From positions 1 to 41,042 of the forward strand of contig CABMCT010000065.1 of the NCBI GenBank assembly GCA_902384675.1: DNA of 41,042 nucleotides, read 5' to 3'. The notes beneath the pieces were generated by a model. It searched no databases. It had not been told where the DNA came from and worked only from the letters and a program-made list of their open reading frames with translations. Shown piece after piece: positions 592 to 33,678 of this stretch. Position 1 is the first letter of the stretch; each line of letters starts with the position of its first letter. Position numbers and translations under genes: made by a program. Origin of the DNA: an uncultured archaeon. Lineage in GTDB: Archaea; EX4484-52; LFW-46.

Positions 592-2976
592 TCATTTCTT
601 CCCTTGCATCTTAGAAAGCATCACCCTCGTCTTTATCACGCTGTCAGGATTCAGTGAAATCGAGTCAATGCCCTCATCAATCAGGAACTGTGCAAAATCC
701 GGGAAATCGCTTGGAGCCTGGCCGCAGATGCCGATTTTGCGCTTGTATTTCTTCGCTGCATGGATTACAGAGGAGATAAGCCGCTTTACTGCCTCGTTTT
801 TCTCGTTCGCAATATGCGTCACAATTCCGGAATCCCGGTCTATTCCAAGAGTCAACTGCGTCAGGTCATTGCTTCCGATAGAGAATCCGTCAAATATTTC
901 GGAGAATTTGTCTGCCAGAATCACGTTGGACGGTATTTCGCACATGACATAGACTTCAAGGCCGTTCTGGTGCTGGACAAGCCCGTTCTTCTTCATCTCT
1001 GCAATTACCTTCTGGCCTTCTTCGGGAGTCCTGCAGAAAGGAATCATCACCTTGATATTGTTCAGGCCAAACTCCTCGCGCGCTTTTTTGAGCGCCTCGC
1101 ATTCAAGGGCAAATCCTGCCTTGTATTTATCATCATAGTACCTCGATGCCCCGCGCCAGCCAATCATCGGGTTCTCCTCCTTCGGCTCATAAGCAGTGCC
1201 GCCGATGAGGTTCGCATACTCGTTTGTCTTAAAGTCCGACAGCCTGACAATGACATCCTTTGGGTAAAACGCCGCTGCAATCATGCCTACGCCTTCTGCA
1301 AGCTTGTCGACAAAGAACTGCGACTTATCAGTGTATCCGCCGGTGTATTTGTCAATCTCCTTTTTGAGCTTTGCATCAAGTGACTTGTAATTCAGAAGCG
1401 CCAGCGGGTGAACCTTTATGTAGGAATTTATTATGAACTCCTCGCGCGCAAGCCCCACCCCGTCATTCGGGATAAACGACTCGTCAAACGCCTGCTCGGG
1501 GTTGCCCACATTCATCATAAGCTTTGTTTTCGGTGCAGGAAGATTGCTCAAATCCGTCTTTTTGACATTGAATTTCAGGCTGCCTGAATAGACTTTGCCT
1601 TCCTCGCCTTCTGCGCAGGAAACTGTTATTGTCTCGCCTGTCTTAAGCACCTTTGTCCCGTTTCCCGTGCCGACAACGCATGGAATTCCGAGTTCGCGCG
1701 AAATTATTGCGGCATGACAGGTACGGCCGCCTTTTTCCGTGACTATTGCAGAGGACAGCCTCATTATCGGCTCCCAGTCGGGGTCTGTCATTTCTGTTAC
1801 AAGCACGTCGCCTTTCCTGAACATGTTTATGTTCTTGACGTCCCTGATTATGTTTGCCCGCCCGGCACCGATTTTCTCCCCGACGCTCAATCCTTTTACA
1901 ATAACCTTTCCTTTTTCAAGAAGCGTGTACTGCTCAAGAACCGAGACATCTTTTCTTGACTGCACTGTTTCGGGCCTTGCCTGGACAATGAAAAGCTTTC
2001 CCATCCTGCCGTCCTTTGCCCACTCGATGTCCATGGGCTTTTTGTAATGCTCCTCGATTATACAGCCCCATTTTGCAAGATTCAGGACTTCTGCATCAGT
2101 CAGGCAGAATTTTGCCGCATCGCTTGCGGATGTTTTTATGTTCTTTGTCGGGGTGGATTTATCATCCGAATAAATCATGCGCACGTCCTTGCTTCCAAGC
2201 TCTCTTGAAATTATGGGCTTTTTGCCAAGCTTTAGCGTGGGCTTAAAGACAAAGAACTGGTCAGGGTCTACTCTTCCCTGCACTATGTTTTCCCCGAGGC
2301 CGTACGAGCCGTTAATCAGCACAACATCCCTGAATCCGCTTTCTGTATCGATTGTAAACATTACGCCGGAGCAGGCCATATCGCTTCGCACCATTTTCTG
2401 CACGCCAATCGAAAGATAAACCGAGAACTGGCCAAAGCCTTTTGTGTGGCGATATGATATGGCGCGGTCTGTGAAAAGTGATGAGAAGCATTTTTTGGAA
2501 GCCTCAAGAAGCGCGTCTACCCCGCGGATATTCAAATAAGTTTCCTGCTGGCCTGCAAAGCTTGCATCAGGCAAGTCTTCTGCTGTTGCCGACGAACGCA
2601 CTGCCACGTCGCAGTTTGGCCCGTATTCCTTGCAGAGCTTCTGGTAAGACGCAACAATTTCTTTTTTGAGCTCTTCGGGAAATTCTGCGGAAAGCAGTGT
2701 CTCGCGGATTTTTCTGCCGCGCTCCTGCAAATTCTTCAGGTTGGTGACATCAAGGTCAGAAAGTATCTCGCGCATTTTCTTCTCGATGCCGCTTTCTTTT
2801 AAGAATAAACGGTATGCATGGGCAGTTACTGCAAAGCCGTTAGGTATGTTTACGCCCTTCTTTGTCAGGTTCGAATACATCTCGCCCAAAGACGCGTTTT
2901 TCCCGCCGACAGTGCCGACATCAGTATATCTTATATCGCTGAACCAGAGAACAAGACTCTTTGTTTTATCTACCAT
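592..2976 (-). CDS. ppsA: Phosphoenolpyruvate synthase (pyruvate, water dikinase)
   Basis: VGGKNASLGEM, VAVRSSATAED, GGRTCHAAIISRE (phospho-His), FSIGSNDLTQ, ICGQ. Start placed at MVDKTK (2976). Confidence 0.96.
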   Translation of the reverse strand: MVDKTKSLVLWFSDIRYTDVGTVGGKNASLGEMYSNLTKKGVNIPNGFAVTAHAYRLFLKESGIEKKMREILSDLDVTNLKNLQERGRKIRETLLSAEFPEELKKEIVASYQKLCKEYGPNCDVAVRSSATAEDLPDASFAGQQETYLNIRGVDALLEASKKCFSSLFTDRAISYRHTKGFGQFSVYLSIGVQKMVRSDMACSGVMFTIDTESGFRDVVLINGSYGLGENIVQGRVDPDQFFVFKPTLKLGKKPIISRELGSKDVRMIYSDDKSTPTKNIKTSASDAAKFCLTDAEVLNLAKWGCIIEEHYKKPMDIEWAKDGRMGKLFIVQARPETVQSRKDVSVLEQYTLLEKGKVIVKGLSVGEKIGAGRANIIRDVKNINMFRKGDVLVTEMTDPDWEPIMRLSSAIVTEKGGRTCHAAIISRELGIPCVVGTGNGTKVLKTGETITVSCAEGEEGKVYSGSLKFNVKKTDLSNLPAPKTKLMMNVGNPEQAFDESFIPNDGVGLAREEFIINSYIKVHPLALLNYKSLDAKLKKEIDKYTGGYTDKSQFFVDKLAEGVGMIAAAFYPKDVIVRLSDFKTNEYANLIGGTAYEPKEENPMIGWRGASRYYDDKYKAGFALECEALKKAREEFGLNNIKVMIPFCRTPEEGQKVIAEMKKNGLVQHQNGLEVYVMCEIPSNVILADKFSEIFDGFSIGSNDLTQLTLGIDRDSGIVTHIANEKNEAVKRLISSVIHAAKKYKRKIGICGQAPSDFPDFAQFLIDEGIDSISLNPDSVIKTRVMLSKMQGKK

Positions 2977-3039
2977 ATCATTTATTTGGAGGAGAATGTA
3001 TATATAGAGATTTAACAGAAAATATAAACGAGGCATTGA

Positions 3040-3425
3040 ATGAAAAAAGAAATCGTCAATATTAATGGAATTGCGCCTCCCCGGGCCCGTTCAATCATGT
3101 TGTAAGGGCAGGAAATTTTCTATTTATTACAAGCCAGCTGTCAGCAGACCTTAAAACTAATAAAATTATTCCCGGCAATATCTCGGAACAGACAAGGAAA
3201 GCCATGGACAACATAAAATTATTGATAGAAGCCGCCGGAAGGAAAATGGATGACATTGTAAAGGTCATTATTTATATGAGAGATGTAAAGCAGTTTGATA
3301 AGATGAACGAAGTTTACCGAGGGTATTTCAAAGGCGGGCAGGAACCGGCAAGGGTTACTGTACAAGCATTATCTCCCATAAAATCTGTTGACATAGAAAT
3401 CGAAGCTATTGCCATTGTGAACTGA
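3040..3425 (+). pseudogene. ridA: RidA/YjgF/UK114 family protein split by a -1 frameshift near 3076-3085
   Basis: ATG at 3040 gives MKKEIVNINGIAPP and then stops. The -1 frame continues PGPFNHVVRAGNFLFITSQL...QTRKAMDNI...PARVTVQ...DIEIEAIA. Confidence 0.8.
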
Positions 3426-3467
3426 CTTATTTAACGCTTATTAACTTCCCCAAATATAATATCTGAT

Positions 3468-4220
3468 ATGGTTGTTTCTGATAATCCCGCTACAAGGATA
3501 CGGCTTGAGATATCCCATAATGCTGAAGACAAAAAAATTTCTGTTGGCGGCACCTGCGCGGTTGCGAATGTCTTTGACATGGCCGGAAATCTTGCAATAA
3601 AGCCGTGCGAGCTGGCAGAAAAAGCCCACCCCTCGGATGTATGGTTCAGGCTGGATGTTACGCAGAATAATTTCAGGGAAGGGCTAAAGGAGATGGCAAA
3701 ACTTTCGCACATGGGATTTTCTAATTTTAGCATAATGCTTTCCGGCTTAAAGGAAGCGGATGAAATACGGCGCGCAAGATTTGTTGCCGCAGAATGCGGG
3801 GTTCTGTTTGGCGTCGAGATACCGTTCGGCGTCTCTATAGATTCTCCAGGAATGGCGCTTTCCTACGACGAAATTTCAAGAGCGGGGGCAACATTTGCAG
3901 TAATGGACATTGACTCGCTTTCAAAGAAAATCATGTGCCATGAAAAGATTCAACATGAAATTCCTGAACCGGTTTCCAAGATAATCGAAAGCTCGATAAC
4001 ACGATTCAAGCAGAAAGGAATTCATGTTGCTGCGCGAGGGAATATGCTTGAAAGCACGGATGTCTTAAAAGAGCTGATGGCGTCAGGTATTGACTCGATT
4101 CTTGCGCATCCCGCAAACTTTGAAAAAATAAAACTCAAGGCACTGTATGCCGAAAAGCACCAGGAACTTGATTTCATGAAATCAAAAATGAGGATGCATT
4201 TGAGGCCGAGAAGCCGGTAA
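3468..4220 (+). CDS. Degenerate PEP-utilising enzyme C-terminal (TIM-barrel) domain protein
   Basis: Colinear resemblance to the PpsA C-terminus (VSKIIESSI...GIHVAARG...LMASGIDSILAHP vs VKRLISSVI...KIGICGQ...LIDEGIDSISLNP) without the catalytic motifs. Confidence 0.6.
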   Translation: MVVSDNPATRIRLEISHNAEDKKISVGGTCAVANVFDMAGNLAIKPCELAEKAHPSDVWFRLDVTQNNFREGLKEMAKLSHMGFSNFSIMLSGLKEADEIRRARFVAAECGVLFGVEIPFGVSIDSPGMALSYDEISRAGATFAVMDIDSLSKKIMCHEKIQHEIPEPVSKIIESSITRFKQKGIHVAARGNMLESTDVLKELMASGIDSILAHPANFEKIKLKALYAEKHQELDFMKSKMRMHLRPRSR

Positions 4221-5968: not shown

Positions 5969-7798
5969 TTATTTCCCCAAAACTTTTTTCACTGCTTCCG
6001 CAATTTCTTTCCCGCTCGCCTTTCCTTTTAATTCTTTCATCGCCTCGCCGATAATTACGTTGATTTTATCGGTTTTCTCGCGCGCAATTACTGCTTTTAC
6101 AACATCTTCGATTTCTTTTCCTGAAATTTTCGGCGCGGCGGCAATTATTTCGGAAACTGATTTTCCTGTGCGGTAATTCTGGAGAATTATGTGCGGAATT
6201 TTGTCCTTCTGGATTCTTCCTTTTTGGAGCAATGCAAAAATCTCCATGAAAACATTTTCGTTTATCTTGTCGGCATCGATATTTTCGCGTACTTTAAGGT
6301 TCGGAAGCGTGTTTGTGAAAAAAGCCGCAACGTCTCTTTTGTCTACATTATATTTTCCGGAAATTTCCTCGAAAATATCCAGATAATCAGAAGCCATTAT
6401 CTGGCTCGCCAATTCTTTTCCGATTTCTTTTTCAAGGCGAGCCAACTTTTTATCCAGTGTTTCCGGAAGATTTATTTTTTGAATTATTGCGCGCGGAATT
6501 TCAACCGGCGCAACGTCAGTTTCAGGATACATTCTTGCAGCACCCGGGAGCGGTCGCATGAATTCGGAATCGCCGTTTTGCAGTGCACGCCTGGTTTCTT
6601 TCGGAATTCCATCAAGAAGAGCGTTCACACGGTTAATAACCGCATTCAATGCATTTTCTGCCATGTTTTTATCAGCCGCAACAATTGCAACCAAATCCGC
6701 ATCTTTTGCGCCAAGAATTTTTCTTAATTCATCAAATTCTTTTTCAATCCCGTACTTTGCCAAATCCTCATCAGAATGAATTATGCCCTTGACTTTTACC
6801 TTTGCGCGCGCATATCCTGCAATTTCGTTTCCAAGAGTCCTGAAATCATTAAGCTTTTCCTTAAACAGCCCTGAAACTTTTTCTATTTTTGCTGCATAAA
6901 TTTCCTTGCCGCGCAAAATATTGGATGCGGTATTTTTGAAAACAGAAGTTGCATCAATAATTTTTATTTCCTCCCTCTTAAAGCCCCTGTTTTCAAGTTC
7001 TTTCTTTATTTTAAGCAATCCTAACTGCCGCAAAACTTCCTGGCGCACAAGCTCCGGAATCATTTTCAGGTCCTGCGCCCCTTTTATTTCTGTGCGGGCG
7101 CCGTCTTTTATCGAAACATTTACATCCTGCCGGATTGTGCCTATGCCGCGCATAACTTTTCCTGTGCTTTTAAGGAGCATCCCGATTTTTTCTGCTGTCT
7201 CTTTTGCATGTGCGGGGCTTTTTATGTCAGGGGCAGTTCCTATTTCAACCAAAGGAATGCCAAGCCGGTTCAGCCCAAAAACTGTTTCCCCATCGCGGGT
7301 TTCAAGTATCTGGCAGCTCTCTTCTTCAAGCGAGATATTAGTTATACCTATAAAGCCTTGCGAAGTCGAAAATTTCCCGTCAAGCCCTACAATCGCGGTT
7401 CTCTGGAATCCCGAAGTGTTTGAGCCGTCGATTACGGTTTTTCGCATGAAAAGAACTTCGTCGGGAATTTTTGCCGAAAACATCTTGGAGACAAGAAGCG
7501 AAATTCCAAGAGCATCGGAATTCGCGCTATGCGGCGGCTCCTCGTCCATCTCTACAAGGCAGGATGATTTCGGATAAATTTTGTAAACGAACTCCTTTCC
7601 CCTGCCCAACTCATGCAATGCTGCAGGGTCTATTTCTCCGAGCTCTCCTGCAACAGCACGGAGCTTGCGCTTTATCTCGGATTTTGGAGTTTCTTCTGTT
7701 TCAGTTTCGCAATTGCAGAAAAGCTTCTTTGTTTTCAGCCTGCGGTGTATTTCAAGGCCGCATTTGAAGCCGAGTGCAGGGTAGTCTAAATTATCCAT
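5969..7798 (-). CDS. gatE: Glu-tRNA(Gln) amidotransferase subunit E
   Basis: GFKCGLEIH, KLFCNC, DEEPPH, RKTVIDGSNTSGFQRT, RGIGTIRQDVNVSI, RPLPGAARMYPETD. Start placed at MDNLDY. Confidence 0.96.
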   Translation of the reverse strand: MDNLDYPALGFKCGLEIHRRLKTKKLFCNCETETEETPKSEIKRKLRAVAGELGEIDPAALHELGRGKEFVYKIYPKSSCLVEMDEEPPHSANSDALGISLLVSKMFSAKIPDEVLFMRKTVIDGSNTSGFQRTAIVGLDGKFSTSQGFIGITNISLEEESCQILETRDGETVFGLNRLGIPLVEIGTAPDIKSPAHAKETAEKIGMLLKSTGKVMRGIGTIRQDVNVSIKDGARTEIKGAQDLKMIPELVRQEVLRQLGLLKIKKELENRGFKREEIKIIDATSVFKNTASNILRGKEIYAAKIEKVSGLFKEKLNDFRTLGNEIAGYARAKVKVKGIIHSDEDLAKYGIEKEFDELRKILGAKDADLVAIVAADKNMAENALNAVINRVNALLDGIPKETRRALQNGDSEFMRPLPGAARMYPETDVAPVEIPRAIIQKINLPETLDKKLARLEKEIGKELASQIMASDYLDIFEEISGKYNVDKRDVAAFFTNTLPNLKVRENIDADKINENVFMEIFALLQKGRIQKDKIPHIILQNYRTGKSVSEIIAAAPKISGKEIEDVVKAVIAREKTDKINVIIGEAMKELKGKASGKEIAEAVKKVLGK

Positions 7799-13809: not shown

Positions 13810-14259
13810 TCATCGCAAATACTTTATAGCATCAACAGGATACAATTTTCCGGAAAGATAATCCCTGACAGTTGCCTTTACAGAAGAGCTACGCAGTTTT
13901 GAATCATCCATTGCAAGAATTTCTTTCGGTGCGAACCATTTTGCGTCAAGAATTTCGCCTTTCGGAATTTTCAGTTTGCCTGAAATAATTGATGCTTTGA
14001 ACTGGAAACGGATTGTCATTCGCTCGCCATTTTTTACAGCGTACTGATAAACGCCGAGCAAACCGTCAATTTTCACATCGAAACCGGTCTCTTCTTTTAT
14101 TTCACGGAATGCACCGTCGATAATTCTTTCCGGCGGGTCGAAGTGCCCTGCAGGGACATTCCATAATCCGCGCGCAGACTCTTTCGCCTCCTGCACAAGA
14201 AGAATTTTGCCGTCTTTCTCAACTATTCCGCCGCAGACCACAAGAAATTCCATAAACAA
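13810..14259 (-). CDS. NUDIX hydrolase
   Basis: Nudix box PAGHFDPPERIIDGAFREIKEETG. Confidence 0.9.
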   Translation of the reverse strand: MFMEFLVVCGGIVEKDGKILLVQEAKESARGLWNVPAGHFDPPERIIDGAFREIKEETGFDVKIDGLLGVYQYAVKNGERMTIRFQFKASIISGKLKIPKGEILDAKWFAPKEILAMDDSKLRSSSVKATVRDYLSGKLYPVDAIKYLR

Positions 14260-14262
14260 ATA

Positions 14263-15132
14263 TTACCTCGACAAAATATAAATGCCGATAATAAGCAGAA
14301 CCGCGCCGATTACGCGCGCCATGCCGTGCTTTTCTTTCAAAACGAGCCAGCCGATAAGCGCTGCAAACAACGGAAGCGTTCCTGAAACCGGCAGGACTTT
14401 TGCTGCGTTTTGCATTGAAAGCGAGTAAAACTGGAATGCGACCCCGAGAGGCGCGGCAATCGATGCGGCAAGAACCAGTCCAATAAGCTTCTTTTCTTTG
14501 CGTACTGTGTTTATTGTCTGAACAAGTTGCCTGCGCTTTGTTGCGAATGAAAAAATAATAACATAAATAGAATCAAGAAAATACATGTAAAGCGAAAGCA
14601 CAAGAGGATTCATTGTACCGACCCCAAGCTTGGCAACTATTCCAATAAGTGCAAGCAATACGGCAGATATTGCAATTAAAACGATACCTGCAGACTTTTT
14701 CGGAACTATTATTTTCCCGTCAGCCCAGACAATATAGCCGCCAAGTATAATGACAACGACTCCGAGAAAATCACGCGGAACAAATTTTTCAGACAGCAAA
14801 ACAACTGCAAGAAAAAATGAAAGCAGGACAACTATCGCATCGCGGTATGGGATTAATTTTGATACCTCGCCGGCTTTGAGCGCATAAAAATAAGTTACTG
14901 CAGCCAGAAAATAAAGCACCGATAACGCAAGCGCCGGGTAACTTATGCCCGATGCAAAAGGAACTGCAAGAGCAAGTACAAAAATAAACGCAACAACTGC
15001 ATTGATAGAAAACCTTATTGCAGAAAGCGCCAGCGCATCGACCTTTGCATTTTTCAGTATCTGCTTGTCGAAAACAGCTACAAGCGCGTGAAGGAAAGCG
15101 TAAGATAATGCGAGTATGAGCCAGAGTTCCAT
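14263..15132 (-). CDS. EamA/DMT family transporter
   Basis: About ten hydrophobic helices in two repeats ending LLSEK and VLKEK. Confidence 0.85.
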   Translation of the reverse strand: MELWLILALSYAFLHALVAVFDKQILKNAKVDALALSAIRFSINAVVAFIFVLALAVPFASGISYPALALSVLYFLAAVTYFYALKAGEVSKLIPYRDAIVVLLSFFLAVVLLSEKFVPRDFLGVVVIILGGYIVWADGKIIVPKKSAGIVLIAISAVLLALIGIVAKLGVGTMNPLVLSLYMYFLDSIYVIIFSFATKRRQLVQTINTVRKEKKLIGLVLAASIAAPLGVAFQFYSLSMQNAAKVLPVSGTLPLFAALIGWLVLKEKHGMARVIGAVLLIIGIYILSR

Positions 15133-26684: not shown

Positions 26685-26880
26685 TGGGGCCGACGTGATT
26701 TGAACACGTGACACCTAGATAACTGAAACACACTAAACAGGTGACTTGCAAAGCAAGTCGCCCCAGTGCTCGAGGTTATGAGGATTTTGAGGAACGAATC
26801 CTCAAAAGCTTGAAAATCTCCAAGGATTTTCATGAACCTCGTCTTCAGTCTAGCGCTCTCCCGGGCTGAGCTACGGCCCC
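26685..26880 (-). tRNA. tRNA-Phe(GAA) with 122-nt intron at position 37/38 (intron 26721-26842)
   Basis: Acceptor GGGGCCG/CGGCCCC; anticodon stem CTAGA/TCTAG; CT-GAA-G; T arm ACGTG TTCAAAT CACGT; intron TCAG pairs with CTGA (BHB central helix). Confidence 0.93.
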
Positions 26881-26898
26881 ATATTAAAACTTTGAATC

Positions 26899-27017
26899 AT
26901 CGAACCCAAAGCATCAGTTAAAGATTCGAAATCCGTTCGCGACGCCTTGCGAACCATTATACGTGTCGCTCTCGGCCTTTTTGTTTTGCATCGTTTTATG
27001 TGTGGCAAAACAAAAAG
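26899..27017 (-). repeat. Modular palindromic repeat cluster between tRNA-Asn and tRNA-Phe
   Basis: 13-bp hairpin CTTTTTGTTTTGC/GCAAAACAAAAAG, then GCCGAGA-GCGACAC..GCGTCGC-GAACGGA linker, then a TTTCGAATC/GGTTCGATG unit. Confidence 0.85.
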
Positions 27018-27090
27018 CGCCCCGGGCAGGACTTGAACCTGCGACAACATGGTTAACAGCCATGCACTCTACCTGCTGAGTTACCGGAGC
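27018..27090 (-). tRNA. tRNA-Asn(GTT), no intron
   Basis: GCTCCGG/CCGGGGC acceptor; CATGG CT GTT AA CCATG; GCAGG TTCAAGT CCTGC; TTTATAAA box at 27119-27126. Confidence 0.96.
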
Positions 27091-31675: not shown

Positions 31676-31902
31676 TCTACAGCCATTCACCAACATACTT
31701 GGGCTGGAGAGCCGAGAGTTCCGCACATAATGGTTGGCAAGGCGGAACGAACGGATTTTTTGCCATTAACCTAATGCTTTGGGCAAAAAGGAACTTTGCG
31801 TCGCGAATGGATTTCGAACCATTCGCCAATTGTGCCATGTTCGAAAGCTTGACACAGAGTGTCATGATTTTCAACCATTCATTAATTGCAATGTGTTGAA
31901 AT
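31676..31902 (+). repeat. Modular palindromic repeat cluster (4 units) immediately 3' of tRNA-Gly
   Basis: Arm pairs TCTACAGCC/GGCTGGAGA, TTTTTTGCC/GGCAAAAAG, TTTCGAACC/TGTTCGAAA and TTTTCAACC/TGTTGAAAT. Confidence 0.88.
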
Positions 31903-33270: not shown

Positions 33271-33460
33271 GCCGGAGTCGCATAGCTCGGTAGTGCGACG
33301 GTCTCGAACAGTTTCTTTTCTTTCTTTTTCAAAGAAAGAATAGACAAATCTGGGTAGAAAAGAAAGAAACCGCCGACTTGCGCATCAGCGCAAGTCACCA
33401 GATATCTGTGAGCTAACCGTTGTCCGCAAGGACTCGCAGGTTCGAATCCTGCTTCCGGCG
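33271..33460 (+). tRNA. tRNA-Ser(CGA) with 106-nt intron at position 37/38 (intron 33309-33414)
   Basis: GCCGGAG/TTCCGGC acceptor; ACGGT CT CGA A...A ACCGT; long variable arm GTCC GCAA GGAC; G discriminator; intron TGAG pairs with CTCG. Confidence 0.93.
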
Positions 33461-33678
33461 TTTTTCGACATTAGCCAATGGGGTTGGTCGAAAAAGCCAA
33501 GAGCGACGCAATCGATGGCAGACAAGGCGTCGCGAACGGATTTCGAACCATTCGCCAATTGTGCCGGATTCGAAAGCTTGACACAAAGTATGCTGATTTC
33601 CAACCATCTGCTAAATGCGTTGGGTTGAAACAAAAGATTGATGTGAAACGTTTCACATCAACAGCTTTGGGCGAAAAT
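33461..33678 (+). repeat. Modular palindromic repeat cluster (3 units plus 24-bp perfect palindrome) immediately 3' of tRNA-Ser
   Basis: Arm pairs TTTTTCGAC/GTCGAAAAA, TTTCGAACC/GATTCGAAA and TTTCCAACC/GGTTGAAAC; TTGATGTGAAACGTTTCACATCAA at 33638-33661. Confidence 0.88.

Follow-up and report, generated by a model that had tools for sequence, protein, structure and literature searches.

The window analysed here, the whole of a 41,042-nucleotide (nt) contig (C65) of an uncultured archaeon, carries two intron-containing tRNA genes, tRNA-Ser(CGA) and tRNA-Phe(GAA), whose introns share a hairpin near their 3' ends and belong to two families of short dispersed repeats (Table 1). The genome of the window (G000; 1,197,762 bases in 76 contigs, cited below as C with a number) is small, with a G+C content of 43.7% and a completeness of 89%, and was compared with 40 relatives (41 genomes with G000), including a congener from the same genus (G001). 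Relatives of its tRNA-splicing endonuclease EndA (63–70% identity) occur in metagenome bins titled Nanohalarchaeota, Aenigmatarchaeota, Nanobdellati, 'Bathyarchaeota' or 'archaeon', and because of these mixed titles we refer to the host as a DPANN-type archaeon and to nothing narrower.

The two introns and their shared hairpin

Both introns occupy the canonical 37/38 site, and the exons of each gene join into a canonical tRNA cloverleaf once the insert is excluded, as indicated by ARAGORN for both genes, by the covariance score of tRNA-Ser(CGA) and by the predicted fold of tRNA-Phe(GAA). A single gene was detected in G000 for each of these tRNAs (for tRNA-Phe by ARAGORN and exon matches). The predicted folds of the two pre-tRNAs are much more stable than those of shuffled sequences, with z about -4.9 for Ser and -4.8 for Phe.

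A preliminary description of the window had reported that the two introns share 18 identical nt arranged as a hairpin, and this observation holds. The Ser copy reads CGACTTGC-GCATCAGC-GCAAGTCACC (33374-33399, +) and the Phe copy CGACTTGC-TTT-GCAAGTCACC (26760-26740, -), ending 15 and 19 nt before the respective 3' splice sites, as claimed. A pattern search of the whole of G000 returned exactly two sites, one in each intron, and the reversed control pattern returned none in the 1,197,762 bases. None of 100 dinucleotide shuffles of the window yielded a match, so chance is excluded for the exact motif. The reported absence of C/D boxes was likewise borne out: no box motifs were found on reading the introns, and no Rfam family was matched at the gathering score or at E up to 1, the scan of both introns giving only tRNA and two sub-threshold chance matches, with no C/D box, K-turn or other RNA family. 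Two further statements had to be revised. The introns had been called otherwise dissimilar, but their likeness extends outward from the hairpin into a common closing helix (CTGGG ... CCAG/CCTG). Similarly, the CC flanking the Ser hairpin had been described as unpaired, but in the predicted fold it pairs with an upstream GG in this closing helix (P2 in Table 1). The CC after the hairpin in copies of the second family described below is predicted to pair with a GG directly before it.

The hairpin first noted is P3, the last stem-loop of both repeat families, which we term A-type and B-type. A-type copies consist of P1, in which a polypyrimidine tract is paired with the purine tract R1, followed by the linker CAAATC and by P2 (CYGGG(T)...CCRG), which encloses a second purine tract, R2, together with P3. 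The P2 helix, with compensating changes, is also present in copies located in T-loops. B-type copies (~65 nt in all) begin with a hairpin (CGAGGTT/AACCTCG; hairpin 1), followed by the linker GAGCACTGG and then P2/P3. In the Phe intron, the loop of hairpin 1 is filled by a nested 51-nt module that is a member of the commonest repeat of G000.

The second purine tract of the A-type element is a mirror copy of R1, i.e. a parallel complement of the pyrimidine tract, and not its Watson-Crick partner. This mirror relationship is perfect in 10 of 15 A-type copies, outscores the direct alignment in 14 of 15, and is seen in each of three sequence subtypes that co-vary; further examples are found in G000 (C32:11166-11230) and in G001 (L031). 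As a speculation, it may suggest an intramolecular purine-motif triple helix or a mirror repeat of the H-DNA type. The 3' tails of the introns are unique and complementary to the anticodon loop of the host tRNA (UUUCAG in Phe, UGAG in Ser(CGA), and CAAG in Ser(UGA), a further intron-containing gene of G000).

Table 1. Features of the two intron-containing tRNA genes and of the splicing endonuclease gene in the window (aa, amino acids; bp, base pairs)
Feature	Position	Strand	Basis
tRNA-Ser(CGA) gene	33271-33460	+	ARAGORN, introns allowed; tRNA covariance model, 34.2 bits
tRNA-Ser(CGA) parts	5' exon 33271-33308; intron 33309-33414 (106 nt, 37/38); 3' exon 33415-33460	+	Boundaries read from the sequence
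A-type mosaic element, entire Ser(CGA) intron	33309-33414	+	~90% identity over 58-70 nt to copies on C48, C40, C31, C29, C36 (BLAST); nhmmer E = 6.9e-18
P1, Ser intron: polypyrimidine tract 33312-33330 paired with purine tract R1 33333-33344	33312-33344	+	Predicted folds
P2 closing helix, Ser intron: ATCTGG 33348-33353 / CCAGAT 33398-33403, enclosing single-stranded purine tract R2 33356-33369 and P3	33348-33403	+	Predicted folds
P3 (the noted hairpin), Ser intron: 9-bp stem, ATCA loop	33375-33396	+	Sequence, hairpin scan, folds
tRNA-Phe(GAA) gene	26880-26685	-	ARAGORN, introns allowed; cloverleaf kept in predicted fold
tRNA-Phe(GAA) parts	5' exon 26880-26843; intron 26842-26721 (122 nt, 37/38); 3' exon 26720-26685	-	Boundaries read from the sequence
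B-type element (hairpin 1 CGAGGTT/AACCTCG, linker, P2/P3), nearly entire Phe intron	26738-26841	-	nhmmer E = 1.6e-08 to B profile; aligned by eye
Nested 51-nt module, Phe intron: two small hairpins, starts ATG, ends AAAATC; in loop of B hairpin 1	26783-26833	-	Comparison with unfilled B copies; many BLAST matches across contigs
P3 (the noted hairpin), Phe intron: 7-bp stem, TTT loop	26743-26759	-	Sequence, hairpin scan, fold
endA, tRNA-splicing endonuclease, 250 aa	25691-26443	-	PF01974, 97.9 bits (genome search); Pfam PF01974 and PF02778

Dispersed copies and the conservation of P3

Parts of both introns recur on many contigs of G000 (BLAST). In a self-BLAST, 300 repeat intervals were found, and 44,240 bases of the genome (3.7%) have at least one further copy. 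A profile built from six A-type copies gave 23 nhmmer hits, which collapse to 15 loci (C63 and C22 are the contig ends of one copy). The majority of these loci lie in tRNA genes (n = 11), 10 of them in the T-loop and only that of Ser(CGA) in the anticodon loop, and the remainder are intergenic (n = 4). ARAGORN confirms seven of the 11 tRNA loci, Ser(CGA) directly and six after deletion of the insert: Ala(CGC), Asp(GUC), Pro(GGG), Leu(CAA), Ser(GCU) and a tRNA at C31:12891-13063. The copies in Ser(CGA), Ala(CGC), Asp(GUC), Ser(GCU) and the tRNA loci on C40 and C36 are ~89–91% identical over 58–70 nt; that of Pro(GGG) is more diverged (75% over 63 nt). The intergenic loci (C13:6461-6534, C18, C63/C22 and C48:11665-11815) directly follow the stop codons of open reading frames (ORFs), with no tRNA surrounding them. 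The element at C13:6461-6534 lacks R2 and is flanked by an ORF stop on one side and by the tRNA-Ser(UGA) promoter on the other.

For the B-type family, a profile built from three intergenic copies (C55, C56 and C75) returned six credible nhmmer hits, four of them intergenic (C55, C56 and two on C75) and two in the introns of tRNA-Phe and tRNA-Ser(UGA), of which they form the 5' part. In the tRNA-Ser(UGA) gene (C13:6580-6900), the B-type intron is 235 nt long, and its P3 loop holds a nested module (~6657-6727). This module, that of the Phe intron (26833-26783, -) and those on C31, C48, C22 and C18 all start with ATG, end with AAATC and are preceded by TTC or ATC in the hairpin loop or linker of the element that hosts them, borders that look like one insertion rule for the commonest repeat.

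When the A- and B-type copies outside tRNA genes (C13, C18, C63/C22, C48, C55, C56, two on C75, and one on C20 of G001) were compared with adjoining stop-to-stop ORFs, taken as putative genes, eight of the nine were found in sense orientation, mostly just after the stop codon, the exception being C75:36601-36654. Dispersed repeats also adjoin the tRNA genes of the window (26881-27017, -; 31696-31878, +; 33484-33580, +). In the region C36:24909-25110 (-), a tRNA gene is preceded, ~190 nt upstream, by a 17-nt near-copy of its own 5' end, and the DNA separating the two holds a B-type hairpin 1 and further repeat modules.

To describe P3 itself, we tabulated 16 copies picked by the similarity of their flanks (12 from G000 and four from G001), of which nine lie in introns and seven between genes. 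Pairing holds in 47 of 48 cells at the GAC/GTC base of the stem (three pairs), which this way of picking favours: A- and B-type copies with the base CCG...CGG or GCG...CGC were left out (C48 Ala, C29, C40, C32, C75 and C11; in G001 L023, L024, L028, L031, L032 and L033). Next to the base, a C-A mismatch and a 3' AC are retained. Stem positions 4–8 are paired in 72 of 79 cells, with two to five pair types per position, and these compensating changes indicate that the stem is kept as a structure and that its distal sequence is free to vary. Some copies with the same stem have reverse-complementary loops (C31:12916 GAAG vs. C36:23478 TTCG, and likewise C31:69900 vs. C36:6975), which is a mark of loop inversion in palindromic DNA. 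A strict scan for GAC...GTCAC gave 18 hairpins, of which nine with unrelated flanks were dropped as chance matches (C31:18069, C49, C65:20952, C20, C14, C8, C63:20948, C12:116 and C15).

The identity of the Ser and Phe hairpins is explained by their place in this family. Positions 4–7 (TTGC/GCAA) are common to the Ser, Phe and intergenic G001 copies and, with one change, to the intergenic copy at C13:6509-6531, and the P3 of tRNA-Ser(UGA) in G001 has the same stem save one compensating change from T-A to G-C. These five copies form one sub-lineage, which explains the 18 identical bases. A search of the 41 genomes matched the exact stem GACTTGC...GCAAGTCAC at three sites, the two introns and G001:C20:2679-2701, which lies between a TFB-like ORF and ndk in a 3-kb locus without a tRNA. 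Of the common mobile origin proposed in the preliminary description, a shared mobile element is thus supported and an element targeting introns is not: the families are dispersed through introns and intergenic DNA alike. The finding that had been named as refuting, a motif as common outside as inside introns, applies to the hairpin family; in G000 it does not apply to the exact 18-nt string, which is confined there to the two introns.

Convergence of two unrelated stable hairpins by chance would have to account for less than the full motif, as family members can vary relative to one another in no more than four stem pairs (TTGC/GCAA) and a single flank base; by our own arithmetic, which assumes equal frequencies, ~0.5 of the 120 pairs among 16 copies would be expected to share four base pairs. 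However, besides the failure of all shuffles to match, G001 has the same stem in a third copy, C13:6509-6531 has it with a single change, and the similarity continues into P2, which makes such a coincidence highly improbable.

Alternatively, the hairpin could have a function in the intron RNA after its excision and probable circularisation, as a protein-binding site or as part of a small regulatory or guide RNA, and be under selection in both introns. Such a role, already raised in the preliminary description, would agree with the maintenance of stems by compensating changes, the conserved flanks (C...ACC / C...ACA) with the constant C-A mismatch beside GAC/GTC, and the stability of the pre-tRNA folds, and the copies in sense to neighbouring ORFs may be transcribed as well. 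It found no support in the remaining data. The distal stem sequence is different in nearly every copy, seven of 16 copies lie outside introns and keep the structure, and one intron copy is antisense. Furthermore, the congener lacks the Phe intron, so that no needed function can be assigned to it there, and the introns match no Rfam family, C/D box or K-turn. We consider a function of the excised RNA unlikely.

Insertion context, predicted splicing and differences between congeners

Read in the orientation of the tRNA, the T-loop copies all have the form TTCAAA / insert / TGAAA(A)T, or TTCG...CGAA in Asp, and the inserts end in CGGTT...AACCG. This bracketing fits short inverted ends and a duplication of AAA, yet a bulge-helix-bulge demands the same pattern. 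In the predicted fold of the Ala(CGC) precursor, the T-loop insert is flanked by a nearly canonical bulge-helix-bulge (AAA bulge, UUCA/UGAA helix, AUU bulge). The two introns of the window are predicted to form relaxed versions: the Ser(CGA) precursor has a 3-nt 3' bulge (CUA), a 3–4-bp helix and a 2–3-nt 5' bulge, and the Phe precursor has a 3-nt 3' bulge (UUA), with the 5' side pairing further in the minimum-energy fold. The only endA copy found in G000, which has an N-terminal extension of ~70 aa before the usual N and C domains, is located 240 nt downstream of tRNA-Phe on the same strand, an adjacency that we regard as coincidence. As only one Phe and one Ser(CGA) gene are present, the introns must be removed if the cell makes these tRNAs.

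In tRNA-Ser(GCU) (C29:16794-16912), the A element is inserted in the T-loop in antisense orientation. ARAGORN calls a tRNA in 71 deletion variants of this gene, and the antisense insertion is also found in G001 (L032). Together with the intergenic copies and the lack of any match to the reverse transcriptase domain RVT_1 in the 89%-complete genome, the antisense copy argues for spread as DNA and not by reverse splicing of RNA. In the latter process, an excised intron would re-insert into another tRNA by a reversed endonuclease and ligase reaction, be reverse-transcribed and be recombined, with its hairpin, into the gene. The exchange of the Ser(CGA) and Ser(UGA) introns between the congeners (see below), precise at the exon borders, and the presence of related introns at the same T-loop position in many tRNAs would both be expected from such RNA-level transposition. 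Nevertheless, the antisense copy, the copies without tRNA context and the missing RVT_1 match all count against it, as do the modules nested within hairpin loops, and we judge it quite unlikely.

A candidate for the mobilising enzyme was considered on contig C57, where an element of the IS200/IS605 type (2422-4040, -) consists of a Y1_Tnp tnpA (3642-3992, 136 aa) followed by a 415-aa ORF placed as tnpB by its position. This insertion sequence was rejected: the hairpin at the end of the 415-aa ORF is unrelated to GAC...GTC, the comparison being made at the ORF end and the left end of the element being cut off by the contig end, and no repeat interval lies on the 4-kb contig.

Among the 40 relatives, matches to the intron parts are nearly confined, with G000 itself, to G001; the commonest module has a few weak matches in family f7. 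The two congeners differ at several tRNA loci. The tRNA-Phe gene of G001 lacks an intron and is separated from tRNA-Asn by 2 nt. The spacer between tRNA-Asn (27018-27090) and tRNA-Phe in G000 is 137 nt long (26881-27017, -) and contains a dispersed repeat (26903-27016). The Phe gene is also intronless in G004, G011 and G032, and its exon matches abut in G013 and G018. Four genomes of family f2 have unrelated Phe introns of 44–50 nt at the same site. The Ser introns are swapped between the congeners, the A-type intron being found in Ser(CGA) of G000 and Ser(UGA) of G001 and the B-type intron in Ser(UGA) of G000 and Ser(CGA) of G001, with both genes retaining their own exons and upstream regions. 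The A-type intron of Ser(UGA) in G001 has, besides its compensating change in P3, the same 3' flank, and more distant Ser genes (G006, G018 and G040) have no intron.

Further differences concern tRNA-Ile(GAU), where G000 has only a 26-nt anticodon-loop intron and G001 only an A-type T-loop intron, and tRNA-Thr(GGU), where G001 has a 117-nt A-type T-loop intron and G000 (C11 ~14200-14310, -) a 42-nt T-loop insert. The latter is bracketed by three copies of the 3' T-stem sequence TTCGCGC and may have been left behind when an intron was replaced or lost. Between G000 and G001, the T-loop introns of the Ala(CGC) and Pro(GGG) orthologues differ in A subtype and in P3 stem. Many short non-coding copies with presence/absence differences between close genomes are also typical of miniature inverted-repeat transposable elements (MITEs), and this pattern in the sequences suggests that the elements are young and mobile.

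Interpretation and comparison with known systems

We think it likely that the two introns are DNA-level mobile hairpin elements, tolerated within tRNA genes by virtue of flanks that form a bulge-helix-bulge splice site. The P2/P3 module ends both families of short non-coding mosaic repeats, and the A and B elements would spread at the DNA level into intergenic DNA and tRNA genes. A copy in a tRNA gene would persist only where its ends and the adjoining loop form a bulge-helix-bulge that EndA can cut, and would so become an intron. The Ser(CGA) intron is an A element and the Phe intron a B element with a further nested module, their P3 copies stemming from one recent sub-lineage. P3 itself may have a structural role in the element or be recognised as a hairpin, and would be maintained for its single-stranded nucleic acid structure and not as a splicing signal.

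More tentatively, the A-type element could be the archaeal counterpart of the eukaryotic introners, a non-autonomous DNA element whose short inverted ends (CA-CGG...CCG-TG) and duplicated AAA of the T-loop target TTCAAAT rebuild the bulge-helix-bulge, so that either orientation gives a spliceable intron in any tRNA. P3 might then be read by the mobilising enzyme, and the pyrimidine tract, R1 and the mirror copy R2 might fold as an intramolecular purine-motif triple helix for mobility or intron compaction. We regard this extended proposal as possible but doubtful.

Several points weigh against DNA-level mobility coupled to splicing. The intergenic copies show neither a convincing target-site duplication nor clear terminal inverted repeats, and no mobilising enzyme was identified in G000, where the sole Y1 transposase is unlinked to the repeats. 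The removal of the Phe and Ser(CGA) introns from RNA is a prediction. The 3' tails of these introns have no strong BLAST match in G000, and plain insertion leaves their origin unexplained; the tails may need a pre-existing short intron, or selection among many insertions. Similarly, G001 and family f4 may have lost a short, older intron from tRNA-Phe, instead of G000 having gained one recently. Four of the 11 A loci assigned to tRNA genes (C40, C36:6953-7058, C32 and C75:14634) gave no ARAGORN call after deletion of the insert and were recognised by their T-arm flanks alone, probably because they carry further introns. Finally, the P3 table leans towards its conserved base, and the assemblies of G000 and G001 are both of the metagenome type.

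Transposed tRNA intron families of the Thermoproteales were reportedly described by Fujishima et al. in 2010. The mechanism of this 'transposition' is called unknown in a later review (PMC4090602), and the transposed introns have bulge-helix-bulge borders, their gain being thought to occur at the DNA level (PMC4090602; bioRxiv 10.64898/2026.10.13.758758). Like these families, the elements described here give highly similar introns, with predicted bulge-helix-bulge borders, in tRNA genes of different isotypes in one genome. In contrast to them, the introns are long (106 to ~256 nt) and mosaic, with nested modules, and copies of the elements also stand alone between genes. In addition, one copy is inserted antisense, introns vary between two genomes of a single genus, and the host is of the DPANN type.

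In bacteria, repetitive extragenic palindromic sequences and bacterial interspersed mosaic elements (REP/BIME), Rickettsia palindromic elements and MITEs are short, non-coding, mosaic hairpin units that are dispersed, often just after genes, and can be nested. The units described here share all of these traits: they are short, hairpin-forming, mosaic, dispersed, nested and often located after genes. Unlike the bacterial palindromic repeats, they are also found within tRNA genes as introns predicted to be spliceable, and no RAYT-like partner was found in G000.

Non-canonical T-loop tRNA introns and an endonuclease of broad specificity are reported from ARMAN-2, Ca. Micrarchaeum acidiphilum (PMC3239211, PMC3488258). 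ARMAN-2 and the present host are alike in being tiny DPANN archaea with T-loop introns and a protein endonuclease, intron removal being predicted in our case. They differ in that EndA here comprises one unit of 250 aa, with an N and a C domain, instead of the three-unit form, and in that the T-loop inserts (~105–250 nt) come from a repeat family. In Caldiarchaeum subterraneum, a tRNA intron gain is tied to a 1.8-kb recombinase-encoding element (Sugahara et al. 2012, PMC3293823). Presence/absence at a tRNA locus over a short time is ascribed to mobile DNA in both cases, but the units of G000 are 60–150 nt long, non-coding, and themselves form the intron. Introners are reported to be transposon-derived spliceosomal introns of eukaryotes (PMC11282704). 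They provide a parallel for mobile DNA tolerated in genes because host splicing removes it, although here a protein endonuclease and the bulge-helix-bulge would take the place of the spliceosome and the hosts are archaeal tRNA genes. What is new in the present system is that tRNA introns are copies of short non-coding mosaic repeats that also lie between genes, that they occur in both orientations, and that they differ between two congeners. We found no published description of archaeal tRNA introns built from dispersed repeats in the full-text literature searched, whose coverage leaves out most subscription journals.

The elements also affect how genomes of this kind are annotated. ARAGORN with introns allowed yields 19 tRNA genes in G000 and the tRNA covariance model 29 matches, and Ser(UGA) is mislabelled as tRNA-Ala by ARAGORN. 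Many tRNA genes of G000 are masked by long or multiple inserts, such as tRNA-Ser(GGA) (C36:6940-7170) with probably three introns. Because many tRNA genes of this genome escape standard tRNA finders or are given a wrong name, estimates of the gene content of such genomes are biased. In addition, donors are visible in this genus, where the same short elements stand alone between genes, make up whole introns and occur in either orientation, and the filled and empty sites in the two congeners (Phe, Ile, Thr and the swapped Ser introns) offer a before-and-after view of intron origin. How archaeal tRNA introns arrive at new sites, a question open since 'transposition' was proposed for the Thermoproteales, thus becomes testable in this system.

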